A stretch of DNA of 64,000 nucleotides from NCBI GenBank assembly GCA_000004985.1, contig GG738936.1; one strand, written 5' to 3'. Each line of letters opens with the position of its first letter. Position 1 is the stretch's first letter. This document shows, piece after piece, positions 1,676 to 16,924 of the stretch. This stretch comes from Naegleria gruberi (lineage: Eukaryota). The position numbers and the translations under genes were made by a program. The notes under the pieces were generated by a model. It ran no database searches and was not told the DNA's origin. It worked only from the letters and a program-made list of their open reading frames with translations.

Positions 1676-1748
1676 GCCCGTCTAGCTCAGTCGGTAGAGC
1701 GCAAGGCTCTTAACCTTGTGGTCGTGGGTTCGACCCCCACGGTGGGCG
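1676..1748 (+). tRNA. tRNA-Lys (anticodon CTT).
   Basis: A 73-nt cloverleaf is readable directly. The acceptor GCCCGTC pairs with GGTGGGC (including G-U pairs). The D-arm is AGCTCAGTCGGTAGAGC, the anticodon loop is CTCTTAA, and the T-arm is GTGGGTTCGACCCCAC. It closely resembles eukaryotic tRNA-Lys-CTT, and a T-run follows at about 1754. Confidence 0.9.
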
Positions 1749-2112
1749 ATTCATGTTTTTGTTTATTCACAAAAGGACAGATTCAACATGAAAATTAGGT
1801 TTTTATTACTTGCAATGATTTATGATGGATCTTTGTGTCAAATCAACAAAATGAAAACAATTTTAATGATAGAGAATCAGTTTTTCGTGATAGATCATTA
1901 TCCAAACTCCACATTAGTTATTATTCGTGTATCTCTCAACCTTTCATCCTTTATTTCATTCAACATTATGAGAACCTACTTTTCCTTTTTGACAACACAT
2001 GATTTGTGCAATTTCTGTTAAATTGCCGGCACTTTATTGGACTAGTAAACAATATCAAAAAAAAAACAAATACTGTTGTTATTCAAATCAAACCATTGAA
2101 TATCATTCACAA

Positions 2113-3591
2113 ATGCTCAACATGATCGTTTCCAACTCACTCAAGACAAGTATTTGTCTTGCCATTATTCTTGTACATTATATCAGAATTGTAAAAGGTG
2201 CTAATCCTGATTGTGCTCTTATTGTTCCTCCAAATCCACTCACTCCTCAAGGATTGGCAACCCCTTATATTTTGAGAGCTGTCAATCCTGCTAATGGTCC
2301 TTGTGTCATGACAGCTGCTGATCAACAATCATTTGTTGAGGGTGTTATTTTCGTTCCAGAGACAAGATCCTTCATGATTTATAATCCTTTGGTAATTACT
2401 CAAAATACTCAACCAGCAATCAAACCAACTGTTCCTACCTTTCCAAAAACAGCAATTGTTGGTTTGTGGTTTGGTACAAATGCTGGTTCTCTTACTTTAA
2501 TTGATTCCAGTAATTCACTTGTTCAAGGTAACTGTGTAAATGGTATTGATGGAGCAAATGATATCTTTGGCCAATTCGCCTCATGCAATGGAAAACAATT
2601 TTTTGAAGCTGTCCAAACGTCAATCAGTCAAATTATTAAGGAAAATGCAACCAATAATCCTGGTTCCTTCTTTAATCCACCAGTTCCAGCACTTGGCACT
2701 GCTCTTGATGGAAAATCATGTATGACTGTCAGAGATTTTGGTATTGTTGACATGGATCAATCAGATAACGTTGTTACATCCTATATCATTAGTACAAACA
2801 AGACATTGGCAGGTAGAACTTGTCAAAATACTGCAGCTAATTTGAAAGCCCTTGGAGGAACTGCTCAAACTCAAACTTTGGTAAATGGTTCTGATAATAG
2901 ATTGTTAGCTGTTGCAATGGCACGTGCTTTAAATTGCACTCCATACATGGCCCCTGATTTGGCAAATAATGGCCAATTGACTCAGTCATTGGCATTGGAT
3001 GAGATTCATGCTAAATTGAAACAAAAAGCACCGATTGCTCTTCTTCCAAAAGGAAATCCAATGGTAAGAAGCAATGATCAAGCAAACCTTGAAAAACTCA
3101 ACTTGTATAGAGCTGCTGTTTTTCAACCACAAGTTTCCAGTGTTGCATTTGCTTCCACTCGTCTCTATTGTAAACATTACGCAGTTGTGGCACCTGCCAG
3201 AATATTCCTCGACAAGTCTATCACTTTGAAATATGCAAGTCCTGATACTGGAGTTGCCAATAATTTATTCACATTCCTAGCTCAGAGATTTGTGAATAGT
3301 TGGGAAGGATTGAAATGTGGTTGTATTCTCGATATGCCTTGTCCAATTACTATTGTTGTAGATAAGAATGGAGTAACAACAGATGCTAGTTTATCCACAA
3401 TGATGGCTAGATCTGTAAATGTTGATTCTTTGATGGATCAAATGGTTTTGGAATTTGATGGCTACATGGATGAAAACAACACATTGGATGTTAGAGCTCT
3501 TGTTAGTGAGTCAAATGGTGTTTTTACAAACAATGGTCCTGTGTATATTCTTCTTACCATTGTTGTGTCTATCATGTTCAATCTGTTGTAA
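2113..3591 (+). CDS. Secreted or GPI-anchored glycoprotein of unknown family.
   Basis: A long ORF whose likely start, MLNM at 2113, is followed by a signal-peptide-like hydrophobic stretch (SLKTSICLAIILVHYIRIVKG). There are many N-x-S/T sites, several Cys, and a C-terminal hydrophobic tail (ILLTIVVSIMFNLL) consistent with a GPI signal or TM anchor. The gene is flanked by two identical tRNA-Lys genes. Confidence 0.5.
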   Translation: MLNMIVSNSLKTSICLAIILVHYIRIVKGANPDCALIVPPNPLTPQGLATPYILRAVNPANGPCVMTAADQQSFVEGVIFVPETRSFMIYNPLVITQNTQPAIKPTVPTFPKTAIVGLWFGTNAGSLTLIDSSNSLVQGNCVNGIDGANDIFGQFASCNGKQFFEAVQTSISQIIKENATNNPGSFFNPPVPALGTALDGKSCMTVRDFGIVDMDQSDNVVTSYIISTNKTLAGRTCQNTAANLKALGGTAQTQTLVNGSDNRLLAVAMARALNCTPYMAPDLANNGQLTQSLALDEIHAKLKQKAPIALLPKGNPMVRSNDQANLEKLNLYRAAVFQPQVSSVAFASTRLYCKHYAVVAPARIFLDKSITLKYASPDTGVANNLFTFLAQRFVNSWEGLKCGCILDMPCPITIVVDKNGVTTDASLSTMMARSVNVDSLMDQMVLEFDGYMDENNTLDVRALVSESNGVFTNNGPVYILLTIVVSIMFNLL

Positions 3592-3676
3592 ATAAAATTC
3601 TTTGAATATATTAATTAGTAAGAAATGGTTGTAAGGCCGAAATAATGATTAGTGGGACAAATATTCCTTAATATCT

Positions 3677-3749
3677 GCCCGTCTAGCTCAGTCGGTAGAG
3701 CGCAAGGCTCTTAACCTTGTGGTCGTGGGTTCGACCCCCACGGTGGGCG
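3677..3749 (+). tRNA. tRNA-Lys (anticodon CTT), second copy.
   Basis: A 73-nt sequence identical to 1676..1748, including the 3' flank GATTCAT and a downstream T-run. It is a direct repeat flanking the 2113..3591 gene. Confidence 0.9.
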
Positions 3750-3792
3750 ATTCATATTTTTTCTCTTAATCCTTGTGAATGAATACCTTTAT

Positions 3793-6357
3793 TTACAACT
3801 TTAGCTTTTCTGTAACTCTTCGCCAATGTAATGTCAACCTACATGATCTCCTTGAAAACACTTCACCATAAATGTAATCATCAATTCTACTCAACAAATC
3901 CCCATAGCTTTGTCTCATATCTAGTTTCATATGATCAATAGAATATTCCAATAATTGCAAAAAGCCAAACTCAATAATACTCGAATCAAATCTATCTGGG
4001 ACATCATCAAAGAGGAAAAAATCATCCACATGATCTACAAAAATTTGTGCAACATCATCAATGTTTAAATAGCTCAACAAAATAAGTGACCTCACTGATT
4101 CCACTCTAAGATTGATTTTTGCATCAGTAATTCTTGAAGCATCATCCAATGAGAATAGGGTAACATGGGTCAATAATTCTTTCATAGTTTGAATAGACTC
4201 CTTAGCCAAATTATCAAGCCATTGTTCATCGGTTGGTCTCACAATAACAAAATATTCCACCATTCTTCCAAAAGAGACTATACACGGTACGCATGCATCA
4301 AACGAAGTGGTATTATTCCTATTCACAACTTGAACCTTCTCGAATAAATAATTAGATAAGAAAGGCTGTACAAAATCTTTCACAATATTTGTCTCCTCTT
4401 TCAAACAATTTAAATTCTTGAAAATATTTGCCATAAACATGCCATCAATTAATTTGAAGAAAGATTCGTGATATTCTTTCTTACTGGCAAATAGATGGAG
4501 TAAATCATTCAAATCCTTTAAAATTCCCAATTCTTCAATCACATAAATGGTACTTGGCTGAGCCGTTTTCAAGAATGATCCAAGTATTGGTAGGAAATAA
4601 TGTATCAATTTAGATCTTTTTTGTTGTAAAAATTTTCTAATATGTTCCTTAATGAAATCTAAAAAATCTTTCAGAATACTGATTGATATATTATGTCCCA
4701 AATAGTAGACACAAGTAGTCAAAACTTTCCACTCCTTGAATTGGTCTAAATTAGCCCTCTCTAAATATTCACATAGATTCGAAAGGAAAGTGTTGGCAAT
4801 TAATAAAGTGTGGGCATCTCTCAAATTATCTCTATGTAAAAATTTCAAAATTACTGTAATCAAATTAGAATAGGTTCTAAAGTTATCTAAATTATATTTA
4901 AAATACTCGACAATTTGTGAAAAAACCGATGGTCTAATTTCTCTAGAAGAAAGGAAGTTTGACAGAGAAATACACGTAGTCTTTCTCACATTCAAGTTTT
5001 CATCCTTCAAGTTATTCACCATAATGTCAATAATTTCATCATTGAAATTTTTGAGAAATTGAATATGTTCCAAATATTCACCAAATTGATTATTTAAATT
5101 AAGAGAAACCTGGTAAAGTAGTTTACCAAAAATAGCACTATAATATCCTGCTGATTTACATGCCGTTTCTTTGATTAATACATCCTCTTCAGATTTTGCA
5201 TCTTTCTGCAGTTCAAGTAGTAATATCTTTAAATAAGGATCTACAAAACTCCTCAGTACAGTCTCTACTATCTGTCTCGTATTAAAGAATGGATCTAACA
5301 AGTTGGAGAAAAACATGGATTGGATGACTGATCCTGAAATATTGATAATTTTCTGTTTTATCATACCGACTGTCTTTCCGTGACAAAACATATCCGAATT
5401 AATCTTATTACCAATTTTTGCAAAATCATTTCCCAAACATTGAAGAATTGTTTGAACTGACTCAAAATAGGAGGAGCATAATGTAGAAATTAATTTGGTT
5501 CCTATGTTGGACAGATATTTTGCAATATCTCCAATATTAGTTTCGAATCGGAAATCAAATACTTCTGACAATTCGTATGTTATACTAATCAGTTTTTCTA
5601 TAATCATTTTTATCATTCGGAGTTGTTCTATTTTCAATACTGATATAAACTCATCAGATTCTTCATCAATAGAATCCATCCAATATACGTATTGATTGAA
5701 AAATTCCAATGTTTGTCCCACAATTACGAATTCTTCATAGCTAATCCAATAGTGGTCAGAATATTTTGATAAATGATTAGCCTTCTTTCGTCTAAAATAT
5801 TCAAGCAACACCAACTGAAATAATGGTACATTTTGAAGTACATTTCCTGATTCTGTTGAATATTCCAAAAATTCATTATAAAATCCTCGATGACAAATCC
5901 TTGAAAATAATAAAAATGTAAATAGCTTCCACTCGGGTATTTCATTTTGAAAACTCATTCTCTTAAACGCAGTATCAACAGTTTCATTTGTTGAGCGACT
6001 CGTTTCTTGATTTGGATAAACAACTTGTCTAAGTATTAACAAATTATTATACATTTCCTGATCCAATTCAATAATATATTCAAAAAATGGGAAAAACTCT
6101 ACTAATTTCGAGGAAGGATATGTTTTCACAACTTCCATTATTATGTACATTATCTTGATGGTGATTGTAGTTTCATCATCATTTTGCAAAATTTCCGATA
6201 ATTTTGAAGGCTTTAATCGTTCATCTTTTTCCAAGTGATACAAGGCTGTTGTTTGTTTGGGAGGAAAACCTGCAATTCTTTTAGGTTCGGGCAAATATTG
6301 AATAGCTTCAAAAAATTGTTGAATTAAATAAATCTTTCCATTTCGAAATGATTGCAT
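3793..6357 (-). CDS. Large hypothetical protein, probably built from alpha-helical (HEAT/ARM-like) repeats.
   Basis: An 854-aa uninterrupted ORF with coding-like composition, Leu-rich helical repeats throughout, and no TM segments or catalytic motifs that I recognise. Confidence 0.45.
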   Translation of the reverse strand: MQSFRNGKIYLIQQFFEAIQYLPEPKRIAGFPPKQTTALYHLEKDERLKPSKLSEILQNDDETTITIKIMYIIMEVVKTYPSSKLVEFFPFFEYIIELDQEMYNNLLILRQVVYPNQETSRSTNETVDTAFKRMSFQNEIPEWKLFTFLLFSRICHRGFYNEFLEYSTESGNVLQNVPLFQLVLLEYFRRKKANHLSKYSDHYWISYEEFVIVGQTLEFFNQYVYWMDSIDEESDEFISVLKIEQLRMIKMIIEKLISITYELSEVFDFRFETNIGDIAKYLSNIGTKLISTLCSSYFESVQTILQCLGNDFAKIGNKINSDMFCHGKTVGMIKQKIINISGSVIQSMFFSNLLDPFFNTRQIVETVLRSFVDPYLKILLLELQKDAKSEEDVLIKETACKSAGYYSAIFGKLLYQVSLNLNNQFGEYLEHIQFLKNFNDEIIDIMVNNLKDENLNVRKTTCISLSNFLSSREIRPSVFSQIVEYFKYNLDNFRTYSNLITVILKFLHRDNLRDAHTLLIANTFLSNLCEYLERANLDQFKEWKVLTTCVYYLGHNISISILKDFLDFIKEHIRKFLQQKRSKLIHYFLPILGSFLKTAQPSTIYVIEELGILKDLNDLLHLFASKKEYHESFFKLIDGMFMANIFKNLNCLKEETNIVKDFVQPFLSNYLFEKVQVVNRNNTTSFDACVPCIVSFGRMVEYFVIVRPTDEQWLDNLAKESIQTMKELLTHVTLFSLDDASRITDAKINLRVESVRSLILLSYLNIDDVAQIFVDHVDDFFLFDDVPDRFDSSIIEFGFLQLLEYSIDHMKLDMRQSYGDLLSRIDDYIYGEVFSRRSCRLTLHWRRVTEKLKL

Positions 6358-6464
6358 TTTTTATGACTAAATTATTAATAGAATTGAAACCTTGAATAAA
6401 ACTATTATTTTCTTAATTTAATTATAATAATTATTATTTATTTTATTAATATTTACCATTACTA

Positions 6465-7077
6465 CTAGTAATAACGCCTTACTACAACATTATTCAATAC
6501 TACAATTAAAATTACAACAGCAATGTCCAACACCACGAAACATGCAAATAATCCTCCACCAATATTTCCAAACTATTAATATTAGCAAACACAAAGCCTA
6601 ACAATTACTTACTCTTCTTCCTCTATCACTGTAATTCATACGATTTCTAGTCATTGCAAAGAGAATAAGCCAAATAATTGGAAAGCAAAATCCGATCAGG
6701 AAGATTACAAAGGCCATATCATCATTCTTTTTCTTCAAATCAAAATTATCACCCAGTACAGGGTTAGAAACAAAGGTTGTTGTTCTAATAATTGATCATC
6801 TACATCAGAAAAAGTGTAACACTTACTGTTGAGTGGTTGTTTGTCCAGGATATTGTTGAACAACATAACCTCCATTTTGAGGTGGATAATAATTTTCACT
6901 TGATATTGGCATTGCAGTATTAGTCATTGGCATTTGAGGAGGTATTGGATATTGAGGTGTTGTTGTTGTATAATAAGGTGGAGGTTGATCATAATAATAA
7001 TTATACTTCTCCTCTCCAGCATATTTAGCTTGTTCTTGCAATGGTTGATGAAGAGGTACTTGCATTGAAGGATCCAT
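6465..7077 (-). CDS. Small membrane protein with a Pro/Tyr/Gln-rich N-terminus and two predicted TM helices (paralog A, 3 exons).
   Basis: Hand-spliced exons are 6827..7077, 6613..6784 and 6465..6572. The introns are 6785..6826 (42 nt) and 6573..6612 (40 nt), both starting GTAAGT. The spliced protein is about 176 aa: a PQY-rich N-terminus, then KKKNDDMAFVIFLIGFCFPIIWLILFAMTRNR (TM1), then FGNIGGGLFACFVVLDIAVVILIVVL (TM2). Confidence 0.5.
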
Positions 7078-7414
7078 TCTCTATATTATTCAATGTATAT
7101 TCTATATTGTTACGATCGTAAGATTAAATTTAAAAAACTTTTTTTCTTCTAAGGGAGATATAATCGATCGACACACCTTTAAGCCTTAAAAGCCTCCTCC
7201 TTTACACTGCTTACTAGAGACTGCAGGCGCTTGGGAGTTGAAGCGGTCAAAAAAAAAGTAAGAGTGTTTCATGCATAAACGGCTCGTAATTTTTTCAGAG
7301 TTAGCCTGACTGCTCTTCCAATTGTATTCCATTAGGAATCGAAATAATTTCACAATTCAGCCAACAATTTTTATACAACAATGTGCAGTTCAATAATTTG
7401 AATTTGATGCTGAT

Positions 7415-8046
7415 TTATTTGGCACGGACAGCAATATTGACAGCAACAATGATAACAATAAAGACAGCATAACAAATGATTGAAGCAACAATCAAACCAC
7501 ATCCAACATTACCAAGCTATATTTTTTTTTGTAAAATATTATTGTAAGATATTAGATTGATTAATATCAATAAAAACTTACTGTTCTAGCTCTATTGCTG
7601 TACTTGGTTTTATCTCTTGTAATAAAGAACAAAACAATCCAAACAAGAGGAATAAAAAGTCCAACAATGAATAATAATAAAGTCATGTCATCATTCTTCT
7701 TTTTGTGATATTGATCATCATAATGTCTATATTGTTATCATATATTGTTATCATTATATTATCATGATTTATCGTTAAAAATCATCACCCGAATATTAAA
7801 AAATGTTAAATATTTGTTGATTATTGGTGAATCCACTTACGGTTGAACATAACCTCCAGAATAATATTGTGAAGTTTGAGTGGTAGAAGTGGCAGCTACT
7901 GGTGGTTGATCAGCGTATGGATCATATTGTGGAGTGGCAGTAGTGGTAGTATTATATTGTGGATACTGTTGTGGAGTGTAGTATTGTTGTGGTTGAGCGT
8001 GTTGGACGTTGTCGAATTGAGCGTATGGAGTATTGTCTTGTTGCAT
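7415..8046 (-). CDS. Small membrane protein with a Pro/Tyr/Gln-rich N-terminus and two predicted TM helices (paralog B, 3 exons).
   Basis: Exons are 7841..8046, 7582..7726 and 7415..7516. The introns are 7727..7834 (108 nt) and 7517..7575 (59 nt) with GTAAGT donors. The architecture and exon phases match paralog A: KKKNDDMTLLLFIVGLFIPLVWIVLFFITRDK, then LGNVGCGLIVASIICYAVFIVIIVAV. Confidence 0.5.
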
Positions 8047-10412: not shown

Positions 10413-11372
10413 TTACAAAGTGAGACCTCCAACATGTTTAACACTCATTTCCCACAAATCGTCCTGATACTTTTCATTGAAACTGTCTGCAATACTCTTC
10501 TTCTCCTTCCATTGTTCATAATATTTGAAACCAGTAACGCCATTCTGATCAGGATGAACTGCATGGAAAACTACTGAGAGACTAGCATGTTCTGGAGTAT
10601 CAAAGAATAGACCACCTATAATTGAAGAAAAACTTCCCAATAACCCTGCAAAAATTTGTGTGTTCACAACACCAGGATGCATGGCAATTACACTAACTCC
10701 TGATTGAGGTATTGAACTGCCTTCATTCAAATTTCTAACCAATTTGTAAGCAAAAAGAAGATTAGCTAATTTGCTATTTGCATAAGTTTGCTTTCCACTA
10801 TATGATGATGGTTTTTCATAATTTGGATCGCTCAATAATTCTTTAGCATCCCCACTTGAATGAATTTTAGAGCTCAGTATAATGATTCTCGATGGAGCAC
10901 TTTCTTTCAATTTATCCAACAATAAATTAACCAGTAAGAAATGGCCCAAGTGGTTAATACCATATGTATTTTCAAACTGTTGTTTAGTTTTCTTTCTTTC
11001 CACTTCCCAAACTCCAGCATTACACACCAGAGCATGAATTGGTAAATTCTTCTCCAAAAACTTTCTTGCAAAATTACGAACTGATTCCAAATCAGACAAA
11101 TCCAACGGAATAAATTGCATCATGGCATCCTTATTGGCTGTCTTGTTTCTAATTTCTTCCATAACTTTCATGGCCTTGTCCTCCGATCTACAAGCTAAAA
11201 TAACATGAGCACCCATTTCAACAAGATGAGTAACAGCAGCCTTTCCAATACCATCACTGGCTCCTGTAATGATCACAACCTTGTCTCCTTTGAATCGGAG
11301 AGGAACTGTGAGAGGTGAATTTGCTTGTTGCGACATTTTTTTTGATTCTTTTTTTAAATTTGTAATACCCAT
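10413..11372 (-). CDS. Short-chain dehydrogenase/reductase, retinol dehydrogenase/WWOX-like.
   Basis: The Rossmann motif VVIITGASDGIGKA is present, with NAGV downstream and the catalytic YxxxK (YANSKLANLLF). At 319 aa this is typical of RDH11/12-like SDRs. The ATG at 11370-11372 was verified. Confidence 0.7.
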   Translation of the reverse strand: MGITNLKKESKKMSQQANSPLTVPLRFKGDKVVIITGASDGIGKAAVTHLVEMGAHVILACRSEDKAMKVMEEIRNKTANKDAMMQFIPLDLSDLESVRNFARKFLEKNLPIHALVCNAGVWEVERKKTKQQFENTYGINHLGHFLLVNLLLDKLKESAPSRIIILSSKIHSSGDAKELLSDPNYEKPSSYSGKQTYANSKLANLLFAYKLVRNLNEGSSIPQSGVSVIAMHPGVVNTQIFAGLLGSFSSIIGGLFFDTPEHASLSVVFHAVHPDQNGVTGFKYYEQWKEKKSIADSFNEKYQDDLWEMSVKHVGGLTL

Positions 11373-11938
11373 GCGCCTTTTTAATTGGCTGGAATATATT
11401 ATGCGTCCACTTCTAAAACGGCCTTTTTTAATTATTAATAATTATTAAGAAATTGAATTTTACCGGAATCAAAATCAAATTTTCTTAATGAATTTCTTCA
11501 TAGATCAGTGAGAGAACTCTTCTCAAATTCAATTGAACAATCACTTCCTGACAATTACATGCACTTAACCATCATTTCTAATGTTGCAATATTCAAGTAT
11601 TGGAGTTAATTTGCTTCAAATTCACAACTTCTATCGGAAGAATTCCATGATGATTATTATTTAATTCTAACTTGTTGGTTTCTGTGGTAGCTTGCCAATA
11701 AATCAAGCTTTGCCATCAATTTAATTTTAATGGTGATGTTATCTATTTGACGAATTGTCTTGTGAGTTGCTAACAAATTTAAATAAATTTTTAATTTAAA
11801 AGTGTGTTCAATAAGGTTTGCTTCGTGTTCAAGGAATTTTTTTTAAAGCCTTAAAAAATAAAATCCCACAACAATGCGCTAATCAAACAGCACACCAAGC
11901 GCAATGAATACATGACAGATTTTGCTCTTTTTCGAAAC

Positions 11939-12088
11939 ATCTTTCTCGGCCTTTTGGCTTTGATCGAGTGTAGTATCTGTTCTTTTCAGTTTAATAGCTG
12001 AAAGCGTCCTACGGGGCGCGTTTACTATTAACTCAATTTTTTGTCGGGTCCAGAGGTGTGCCTCCTTGGAAACAAGTTGAGTGCACCC
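11939..12088 (+). ncRNA. U2: U2 spliceosomal snRNA.
   Basis: The 5' end ATCTTTCTCGGCCTTTTGGCTTTGATCGAGTGTAGTATCTGTTCTTTTCAGTTTAATAGCTGA nearly matches the universal U2 5' region, which carries the branch-point-binding GUAGUA. An Sm site (AATTTTTTG) and a 3' end GTGCACCC like the human UGCACCC are also present. Confidence 0.85.
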
Positions 12089-12264
12089 TTTGGTAGGTTT
12101 CAAGCAGACATTGCACTATCCGTCAGTTTTGGAGCCACCCTTTCTCTCTATTATCAATTGAATTTAAAGTAATATGTTTAAAAGTTCTCAAAGAGATAAA
12201 GTATTTTCAAAATATTAAGATGAACTTTAAAAAATTAAGAATACATTGAATAGTGGAGGAATTG

Positions 12265-14694: not shown

Positions 14695-14765
14695 TCGGGC
14701 GTGGTATAGTGGTAGCATTCCAGACTGTCACTCTGGCGACCCGGGTTCAATTCCCGGCGTTCGAG
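14695..14765 (+). tRNA. tRNA-Asp (anticodon GTC).
   Basis: The acceptor TCGGGCG pairs with CGTTCGA (with G-U pairs). The D-arm is GTATAGTGGTAGCAT, the anticodon stem-loop is CCAGA-CTGTCAC-TCTGG, and the T-arm is CCGGGTTCAATTCCCGG. It is very similar to the eukaryotic tRNA-Asp-GTC consensus. Confidence 0.85.
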
Positions 14766-15009: not shown

Positions 15010-15129
15010 GGGTACGGCCATATCACGATTCATGCACCTCATCCCGTCCGATTTGAGAAGTTAAGCATCGTCGAGCCACATCAGTACTGAGGTTGGAGAC
15101 AACTTGGGAACCTGTGGTGCTGTAGTCTT
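15010..15129 (+). rRNA. 5S ribosomal RNA gene.
   Basis: The sequence GGTACGGCCATATCACG...CATCCCGTCCGATTTGAGAAGTTAAGC...AGTACTGAGGTTGGAGACAACTTGGGAACCTGTGGTGCTGTAG shows the conserved 5S blocks and box C region, and is similar to dictyostelid 5S. A T-run terminator follows. Confidence 0.85.
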
Positions 15130-15808: not shown

Positions 15809-16806
15809 TTCGTATTGTTTTTTAAGATTTGTATTTCTCTGTATTCAGATAATCGAAACTAAAGCTCTTTGTTTCTTGAAAGGATAAATGATGAAAATTC
15901 GCGTAATCCTAATAGAGCTCTTCCATAGATCTCAACATGCCAGAGAACTATTAGAAATACCATGAAATGCATCTCGAGTATCGAGATTAGTTCAGTTTAG
16001 TGTTTTGTGAATAAAATAGAAGCACAAGTCCAAAATAAGCATTACTATGCATTGGCAATGTTAAGAGGTGAAATACTCAAAATGGAAACATAGAAGAATA
16101 AGTACTGTGTTTCAAATAATGAAAGGATTTCCTTACTGCTGACAAGTCCTGATTCATGACAAGCACATGACTTGTTAAACTGTTGATAAATTTGGCCTTT
16201 CCTAATCCGTGTATTATTTAATTTCGAGAATGTTGTGTTGAAAATTATCGGTGCTTCTTTTTGAGATTTGAGAATGCCAACCTATTCCATTCATTCATTC
16301 AACTCGGTATGCAAATAAATTAATTGTAGAAAACTAAAATTTTTATGAAATGTTAATGGAAAGAAAATTAATTTGGATAATCAATGTTTATATTATTGAT
16401 ATAATTATACTTGGTTTCAATTATTTATTTGGACCGGAAGCCTGCCAGGAATATGGCGACGATCCCGCTACAGTCTTTGACTGTATGAACAGTGAAGGCA
16501 ACTAATCTATTGATTGTTGGTTCAGTAAGTTATTGTTTAGAAAAGCTTGCCACCTGACCATCTATTTATCACCTTTGAATTTGATCTATTTAGAAAGAGA
16601 AACTTTTGGTTGATCAATTTTCGATAAAATTTCCCTTTCGAATTTGAGTCTTCAAATATTGAAATAGTGAAGATGCTGTGCAATTGTTCATAGAAAATGT
16701 TTCTAAACCAAGTTGACCCAGGCTATCATGTAAATTGTAAATAATCAAAATAAAGTATCCTTCTCAATAAGTTCTTACCGAGCAATATCTTATTTGCTAA
16801 AAAAAA

Positions 16807-16924
16807 GACTACAGCACCACAGGTTCCCAAGTTGTCTCCAACCTCAGTACTGATGTGGCTCGACGATGCTTAACTTCTCAAATCGGACGGGATGAGGTGC
16901 ATTCATCGTGATATGGCCGTAGCC
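16807..16924 (-). rRNA. 5S ribosomal RNA gene, second copy, inverted relative to the first.
   Basis: The reverse complement GGCTACGGCCATATCACGATGAATGCACC...GGTGCTGTAGTC differs from the first copy (15010..15129) only near the 5' end (GGGTAC versus GGCTAC, and ATTCATG versus ATGAATG). A run of 8 A on the plus strand at 16799..16806 gives a T-run terminator on the minus strand. Confidence 0.85.

Follow-up and report, generated by a model that had tools for sequence, protein, structure and literature searches.

PEN-2 (PF10251; PDB 5A63 chain D) is a small protein with a charged N-terminal helix. This helix continues into a hydrophobic helix-break-helix of the pattern G-F-x-F-(x)-P-x-x-W-(I/L)-V-(N), after which come a loop, one long transmembrane (TM) helix and a C-terminal DYLSF domain. 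In the CD225/dispanin proteins (IFITM1-3/5, PRRT1/2; PF04505) a Pro-rich N-terminal tail, with a PPxY motif in IFITM3, precedes a first hydrophobic segment of the non-spanning kind, followed by a conserved basic loop and, at the C-terminus, a TM helix. Proteins of the NDFIP/Bsd2 type (PF10176) join a low-complexity cytosolic tail with two or three canonical PPxY/LPxY motifs to a small bundle of three TM helices, while the small stress proteins of the CYSTM and PLAC8 families are short and combine a low-complexity N-terminus rich in Pro, Tyr and Gln with a small membrane-associated module at the C-terminus that is defined by Cys-rich segments. According to a survey that included Naegleria gruberi, fungi and alveolates are the only eukaryote groups without a reported presenilin, PEN2 was detected in unikonts and plants only, and the C2-WW-HECT ligases of the NEDD4 family are inferred to have arisen in opisthokonts (PMC2770060). 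Here we describe two adjacent minus-strand genes, A and B, in a 64,000-nt stretch of N. gruberi DNA (contig GG738936.1 of assembly GCA_000004985.1; "the window" in what follows). They are probably separate tandem genes whose products belong to a family without a Pfam model; the locus is already annotated in RefSeq, but as a single fused gene.

The models of both genes were built by reading the minus strand from 8600 to 6000 and joining exons by hand at GTAAGT...AG boundaries (Table 1). Splicing produces two complete open reading frames (ORFs), of 150 aa for A and 176 aa for B, in agreement with the sequence-only reading of this DNA, which had proposed a tandem pair of paralogues with three exons each. 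Its description of the exons also holds for both genes: exon 1 is P/Q/Y/T-rich and closes 2 nt ahead of a GTAAGT whose TAA terminates the exon-1 ORF, exon 2 contains KKKNDD, a first hydrophobic segment and a basic loop, and exon 3 the second TM helix. The introns are in phase 2 and then phase 0 in A and B alike, as had been claimed. Because the TAA of the GTAAGT donor closes the exon-1 ORFs, the ORF list gives only fragments of 69 and 84 aa, and both genes were missed there for the reason that had been suggested. The size range of 40-108 nt proposed for the introns was correct in its minimum and too low at its upper end, the largest being 114 nt. From KKKNDD to the end, i.e. over the membrane module, A and B are 42% identical (BLASTP E = 6e-21), which is far above chance. 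All four A/B splice junctions are also present in the deposited RefSeq model, XP_002668924.1 (NAEGRDRAFT_82289, D2W415), a 323-aa "hypothetical protein" covering the locus, and the junctions of gene A are used by its independently annotated N. lovaniensis orthologue. These sequence comparisons confirm that the gene structure and the paralogy of A and B are real, with the exon-intron models as predicted ones.

Table 1. Coordinates in the window of genes A and B with their parts, and of the non-coding RNA genes
Feature	Position	Strand	Basis
Gene A, 150 aa, ATG to TAA	7415-8046	-	Hand-built model, orthologue, synteny, dN/dS
Gene A exon 1: Q/P/Y/T-rich low-complexity N-terminus, residues 1-68 + 2 nt, end CC/GTAAGT	7841-8046	-	
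Gene A intron 1: 114 nt, phase 2, GTAAGT...ATAG	7727-7840	-	
Gene A exon 2: acidic/KKKNDD patch, helix-break-helix, basic loop	7582-7726	-	
Gene A acidic/KKKNDD patch in exon 2	7687-7704	-	
Gene A hydrophobic helix-break-helix MTLLLFIVGLFIPLVWIVLFFIT in exon 2	7618-7686	-	
Gene A intron 2: 65 nt, phase 0, GTAAGT...ATAG	7517-7581	-	
Gene A exon 3: LGNVGCGL motif, long TM helix, basic tail VRAK, stop TAA	7415-7516	-	
Gene A long TM helix in exon 3	7427-7507	-	
A-B intergenic spacer, 337 nt	7078-7414	.	
Gene B, 176 aa, ATG to TAG	6465-7077	-	Hand-built model, paralogy
Gene B exon 1: low-complexity N-terminus including QPPPYY, end CA/GTAAGT	6827-7077	-	
Gene B intron 1: 42 nt, phase 2, GTAAGT...TTAG	6785-6826	-	
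Gene B exon 2: KKKNDD, helix-break-helix MAFVIFLIGFCFPIIWLILFAMT, basic loop RNRMNYSDRGRR	6613-6784	-	
Gene B helix-break-helix MAFVIFLIGFCFPIIWLILFAMT in exon 2	6649-6717	-	
Gene B intron 2: 40 nt, phase 0, GTAAGT...ATAG	6573-6612	-	
Gene B exon 3: FGNIGGGL, long TM helix, tail RRYY, stop TAG	6465-6572	-	
Gene B long TM helix in exon 3	6480-6563	-	
U2 snRNA	11937-12142	+	Rfam
5S rRNA	15010-15128	+	Rfam
5S rRNA	16806-16924	-	Rfam
tRNA-Asp	14695-14765	+	Rfam
tRNA-Lys(CTT)	1676-1748	+	Rfam
tRNA-Lys(CTT)	3676-3750	+	Rfam

The positional orthologue of gene A in N. lovaniensis is C9374_013406 (152 aa), which is 57% identical to A over its full length and whose synteny with the two genes upstream of A is conserved. 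Its two introns, of 64 and 75 nt, interrupt the same two codon positions as those of A and are unrelated to them in sequence and length. The gene ends with its own stop after a basic tail and is followed by an unrelated EF-hand gene, and no copy of B was found at this locus of N. lovaniensis. A dN/dS of ~0.27 between A and the orthologue, 0.23 in the membrane module, with synonymous sites near saturation, shows gene A to be under apparent purifying selection. In the core, A is 66% identical to the orthologue and only 43% to B, while B shares 54% with its closest relative, NAEGRDRAFT_71542 of N. gruberi. These values place the A/B duplication before the divergence of the two Naegleria species; the duplication is old, and B is an older paralogue of A. 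Synteny between the two species holds upstream of gene A and breaks right downstream of it (PYSW02000006.1, extracted locus 10600-12200, compared with 3793-7077 of the window), the break being occupied by the EF-hand gene in N. lovaniensis and by gene B plus an 854-aa ORF in N. gruberi. No third paralogue was found by tblastn within the 64,000 nt.

A profile made from A, B and the orthologue was run in a full HMMER scan against 1.84 billion protein representatives and returned 46 matches at E <= 1e-3. One of them, P0006, is XP_002668924.1, the A+B fusion itself, with two matched stretches; P0014, P0023 and P0050 are off-family, and the others measure 84-205 aa with one matched stretch each. 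About 36 eukaryote-like matches have the A/B architecture, and six that look bacterial are weaker. The members with a named source are from N. gruberi, N. lovaniensis (three loci), Acrasis kona and Entamoeba histolytica/nuttalli, where the protein is called "two tm domain protein"; the remaining ones lie on eukaryotic contigs of metagenomes and SRA assemblies. When 37 relatives were aligned, the Gly and the Trp of the first hydrophobic segment proved to be invariant (consensus LLFIxGFFFPxxWIxxF), and this segment is followed directly by a nearly invariant Arg, then by the basic loop and a GNISCGLF-like start of the long hydrophobic helix. Neither A and B nor any of the relatives reached the cut-off of a Pfam family, A and B giving only sub-threshold TM noise. 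Profile and alignment show A and B to be members of an uncharacterised family without a Pfam model, present in Heterolobosea (Naegleria, Acrasis), Entamoeba and many uncultured eukaryotes, and both show the features that define this "GFFxPxxW" family, from the acidic patch through the helix-break-helix and the basic loop to the long TM helix.

The E. histolytica protein (GAT95852.1) and the three N. lovaniensis proteins (C9374_013406, C9374_004488 and C9374_009614) are true family members which, like A and B, combine a variable tail with the GFFxPxxW segment, the basic loop and the long TM helix. All four are uncharacterised, and a literature search gave no match for the locus tags or for the Entamoeba "two tm domain protein". 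Subfamily 2 differs from A and B in that the intron immediately follows the first hydrophobic segment, not the loop. A second tandem pair, of subfamily 2, is found in N. lovaniensis (PYSW02000003.1, extracted-locus positions 1501-1969 and 2110-2610; 128 and 134 aa); the two copies are ~140 nt apart, are annotated as two genes and have one phase-0 GTAAGT intron each. The Acrasis kona member (JAOPGA020000002.1, extracted-locus positions 1501-1942) is intronless and 147 aa long, and its NCBI name, "di-/tripeptide transporter, partial", is unsupported by the sequence. The bacterial-looking P0039, P0044, P0046 and P0049 show the pattern GFxIPLxGLILYxVxRDxxP...AG.GA, a weak profile match and a Pfam PLDc_N match just below the cut-off. 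We judged the bacterial tail of the scan, with its PLDc_N-type signal just under threshold, to be different from the family, with a merely similar hairpin.

The A and B proteins are composed of five parts. An N-terminus of ~70-105 residues, in which Q, P, T and Y abound and K and R are nearly absent, is predicted to be intrinsically disordered; among 39 members the N-terminal regions vary in length and contain 13% Q, 12% P, 10% T and 10% Y with K+R at only 3.6%. It is followed by an acidic or mixed-charge patch (KKKNDD) and the predicted hydrophobic helix-break-helix with the invariant Gly and Trp (GFFxPxxW), and then by a short, strongly basic loop and a long TM helix with a short tail. In the same 39 members K+R and D+E number 52 and 131 in the 15 residues before the first hydrophobic segment, 161 and 26 in the loop, and 54 and 21 in the C-terminal tail. 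Because of this charge distribution the loop should be cytosolic, and the N-terminal tail would share that side of the membrane only if the first hydrophobic segment does not cross it, the same topological ambiguity as in the CD225 proteins. An AlphaFold2 model of the gene-A orthologue, computed with the 37-sequence alignment, reaches a pLDDT > 90 at about residues 75-152 and consists of a helix at 72-92, a break at a conserved Ile-Pro, a helix at 95-103, a loop and a helix at 112-151; an earlier AlphaFold run with a shallow alignment had given a straight helix of low confidence. On the modelled module the N-termini of A and B would be cytosolic. The closest structural match found for the model is PEN-2 (5A63 chain D) and not CD225, while Foldseek against the PDB returned no match for it.

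Likeness to PEN-2 is also seen in sequence, and most clearly in one subfamily. The Pfam PEN-2 model is the sole match of the N. lovaniensis protein P0025 (23.8 bits, E = 6e-5, cut-off 25) and the top match of P0032 (21.2 bits), and it gives weaker matches in the same register in three further members, the scores other than that of P0025 lying at 15-21 bits; thus the gathering score of PF10251 is reached by no tested member. By hhalign, subfamily 2 matched a PEN-2 set of four sequences with 89% probability, compared with at most 38% in 30 block-shuffled controls, less than 1% in reversed controls, and 54% when the whole family was used. Since the Pfam scan of the family consensus returned only generic TM noise, it neither supports nor specifically contradicts a relation to PEN-2. 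Unlike PEN-2, the family lacks the C-terminal DYLSF region, A ending in ...NIAVRAK and B in ...VVVRRYY directly after the TM helix. Its loop is ~8 residues shorter and strongly basic, it has a long low-complexity N-terminal extension, and its genes are multi-copy and tandemly duplicated. A and B themselves score nothing against PF10251, and the link of the family to PEN-2, weak in sequence, is a likeness short of established homology. We consider the chances of a PEN-2-like fold of the membrane module to be about even, true homology to PEN-2 to be rather unlikely, and a role in gamma-secretase to be extremely improbable.

Taking these data together, we propose that the two old tandem genes, fused in RefSeq, encode members of an uncharacterised family with a re-entrant membrane anchor and a cytosolic tail, an explanation which as a whole seems to us reasonably probable. 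The basic loop would lie in the cytosol and the first hydrophobic segment would form, like that of PEN-2, a re-entrant half-helix hairpin dipping into the leaflet on the cytosolic side. The last helix alone would then span the bilayer, so that the low-complexity tail would be cytosolic too, and the module would act as a membrane anchor that displays a disordered tail, rich in Tyr, Pro, Gln and Thr, towards the cytosol. Our best guess for the function of the tail is a multivalent display that makes low-affinity contacts with cytosolic sorting or scaffolding partners. Several observations weigh against this explanation. The charge-difference rule taken alone would make the N-terminus exoplasmic. 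The fused RefSeq model is labelled "hypothetical protein" and not "predicted protein", and might have EST support. Neither A nor B nor P0005 has a PEN-2 match in Pfam, sequence searches of the PDB with the family profiles miss PEN-2 and return GPCR noise only, and the family consensus sequences match many TM families at 15-24 bits, PEN-2 at only 16. In the PEN-2 set used with hhalign, only the human sequence of the four is verified as exact.

The deposited XP_002668924.1 offers the alternative that the locus is one six-exon gene for a protein with two tandem copies of the module. This protein consists of residues 1-146 of A, one Arg and the whole of B; rebuilt from the window, its gene has the four A/B introns and a fifth one at 7081-7429 (349 nt), with donor GTCCGT and acceptor ATATAG. 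The model is in frame, and the additional intron conforms to GT...AG and ends 3 nt before the ATG of B. However, all nine introns defined in family genes begin with GTAAGT and are 40-114 nt long, which makes the fusion intron an outlier both on its donor and on its length, and its removal discards the conserved basic tail and the stop codon of A. No other family match of the scan contains two modules and the fused protein, if real, would be the sole one, while A and B taken separately fit the family rule of a single module in ~85-205 aa with a variable Q/P/T/Y-rich N-terminus. Because the orthologue stands alone with its own stop, the family is single-module, the second tandem pair is annotated as two genes and the fusion intron is an outlier, we think that A and B are probably two separate tandem genes and infer that they are transcribed separately; XP_002668924.1 would most likely be a gene-prediction fusion of the two, and a single gene is quite unlikely. 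A second alternative comes from the sequence-only reading, which saw a CD225/dispanin- or CYSTM-like topology and cytosolic PY motifs that recruit Nedd4-type WW-HECT ligases. The broad likeness stands, as A and B show the IFITM/PRRT2-like order of low-complexity tail, hydrophobic segment, basic loop and TM helix, i.e. a tail on a membrane hairpin, but family membership does not. Neither A nor B matched Pfam CD225, CYSTM or PLAC8 at E <= 10, and none of the three belongs to the 25 families with the most frequent matches among the 37 scanned relatives; the family consensus scores 16.1 bits against CD225 with a cut-off of 27.1. With a provisional CD225 mini-alignment, hhalign gave 41-56% over the comparisons, and the 41% alignment, covering 42 columns of loop and second TM helix only, is no better than the block-shuffled control (38%). 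The family loop is moreover much shorter than that of CD225 proteins and lacks their palmitoylated Cys cluster and loop motif, and A and B have two cysteines each and no Cys cluster, unlike the Cys-rich CYSTM and PLAC8 modules. As to the PY motifs, B contains the single canonical site of the pair, QPPPYY in exon 1, and the orthologue of A has PPQY; over the family [PL]PxY is enriched about twofold, with 12 sites observed and 5.4 expected from shuffles. The motif is nevertheless missing in gene A and present in only 10 of 39 members, 29 having none, which together with the opisthokont origin inferred for the NEDD4 family (PMC2770060) leaves the Nedd4-adaptor mechanism unsupported and this whole alternative very unlikely. 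NDFIP/Bsd2 resembles A and B in its low-complexity tail and small TM bundle and gave weak matches in 4 of the 37 relatives (best E 0.03), but with its three helices and several PY motifs it differs from A, without any site, and from B with one (PPPYY).

Two further alternatives concern the membrane module itself. It could form a conventional two-pass hairpin with both termini outside the cell or lumenal, in which case the Thr/Ser/Asn/Pro-rich tail would be a glycosylated mucin-like stalk and only the basic loop would be cytosolic. Such a topology would agree with a net charge of ~-2 on the N-terminal flank and ~+3.5 in the loop (mean of 39 members), with the near absence of K+R from the tail, with membrane-adjacent Thr runs and NxT sequons such as the YNTTTT kept in A and its orthologue, and with a hydrophobic segment of ~22 residues that is long enough to span the membrane. 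However, low-complexity regions with much Gln and Tyr are more typically cytosolic, and the middle of the first segment has a conserved Gly and a conserved Pro/His/Asn/Gly position where AlphaFold breaks the helix and where the model superposes on the re-entrant hairpin of PEN-2. IFITM and PEN-2 proteins have the same charge pattern, and yet the N-termini of IFITM3 and PEN-2 are now reportedly placed in the cytosol, following a revised IFITM3 topology and the 2015 cryo-EM structure of gamma-secretase. For these reasons we hold the two-pass hairpin, the chief competitor of our explanation, to be rather doubtful and prefer the re-entrant anchor with its cytosolic tail. At the other extreme, the proteins could be true divergent homologues of PEN-2 that bind presenilin, and so represent a gamma-secretase subunit so far unreported in excavates. 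The near-threshold Pfam matches in a consistent register in five members and the hhalign result would be compatible with this, as would the finding that presenilin is widespread while PEN2 is known only from unikonts and plants (PMC2770060). On the other hand, the region with DYLSF is missing and the loop is shorter, the family has several paralogues whose tails are long and variable, neither A nor B gives a PEN-2 signal, profile searches of the PDB miss PEN-2 and the consensus scan is at noise level, all of which makes such homologues highly improbable. Somewhat less so, although still unlikely, is that the family constitutes a branch of the PEN-2 fold that has diverged deeply and escaped recognition, and that Discoba and Amoebozoa would reuse to anchor low-complexity tails on the cytosolic side; taken furthest, this idea implies that one member may be the PEN-2 subunit that surveys of excavates have missed.

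In practical terms, XP_002668924.1 should be split in two, which would probably correct the N. gruberi reference annotation. The analysis also delimits a small membrane-protein family without a Pfam model that many uncultured eukaryotes have in common with Naegleria, Acrasis and Entamoeba. A true PEN-2-like fold would make this family the third case, next to PEN-2 and the CD225 proteins, of a "re-entrant hairpin plus one TM helix" module, and would bear on the existence of PEN-2-type proteins in early eukaryotes. Should the fold not be real, A and B make an unremarkable, lineage-restricted gene pair of unknown function.

Four long ORFs of the window are identical to RefSeq proteins of N. gruberi NEG-M, where they lie on a 79.9-kb scaffold, and the window, whose spliceosomal introns are short, belongs to the nuclear genome of a heterolobosean amoeba. 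Its G+C content is ~32% overall and drops to ~22% between 60001 and 64000, where the AT skew is positive. Rfam gave no match in or near the A/B locus; the spacer between the two genes likewise has no Rfam match and is not a repeat. Elsewhere in the window Rfam identifies one U2 snRNA, two 5S rRNA and three tRNA genes (Table 1). The U2 snRNA, both 5S rRNA genes, which are dispersed and in opposite orientation, and the tRNA-Asp gene make up a small cluster of non-coding RNA genes within ~5 kb. The two tRNA-Lys(CTT) genes score identically in Rfam and flank a 530-aa ORF (1999-3591), an arrangement that may reflect a local duplication.

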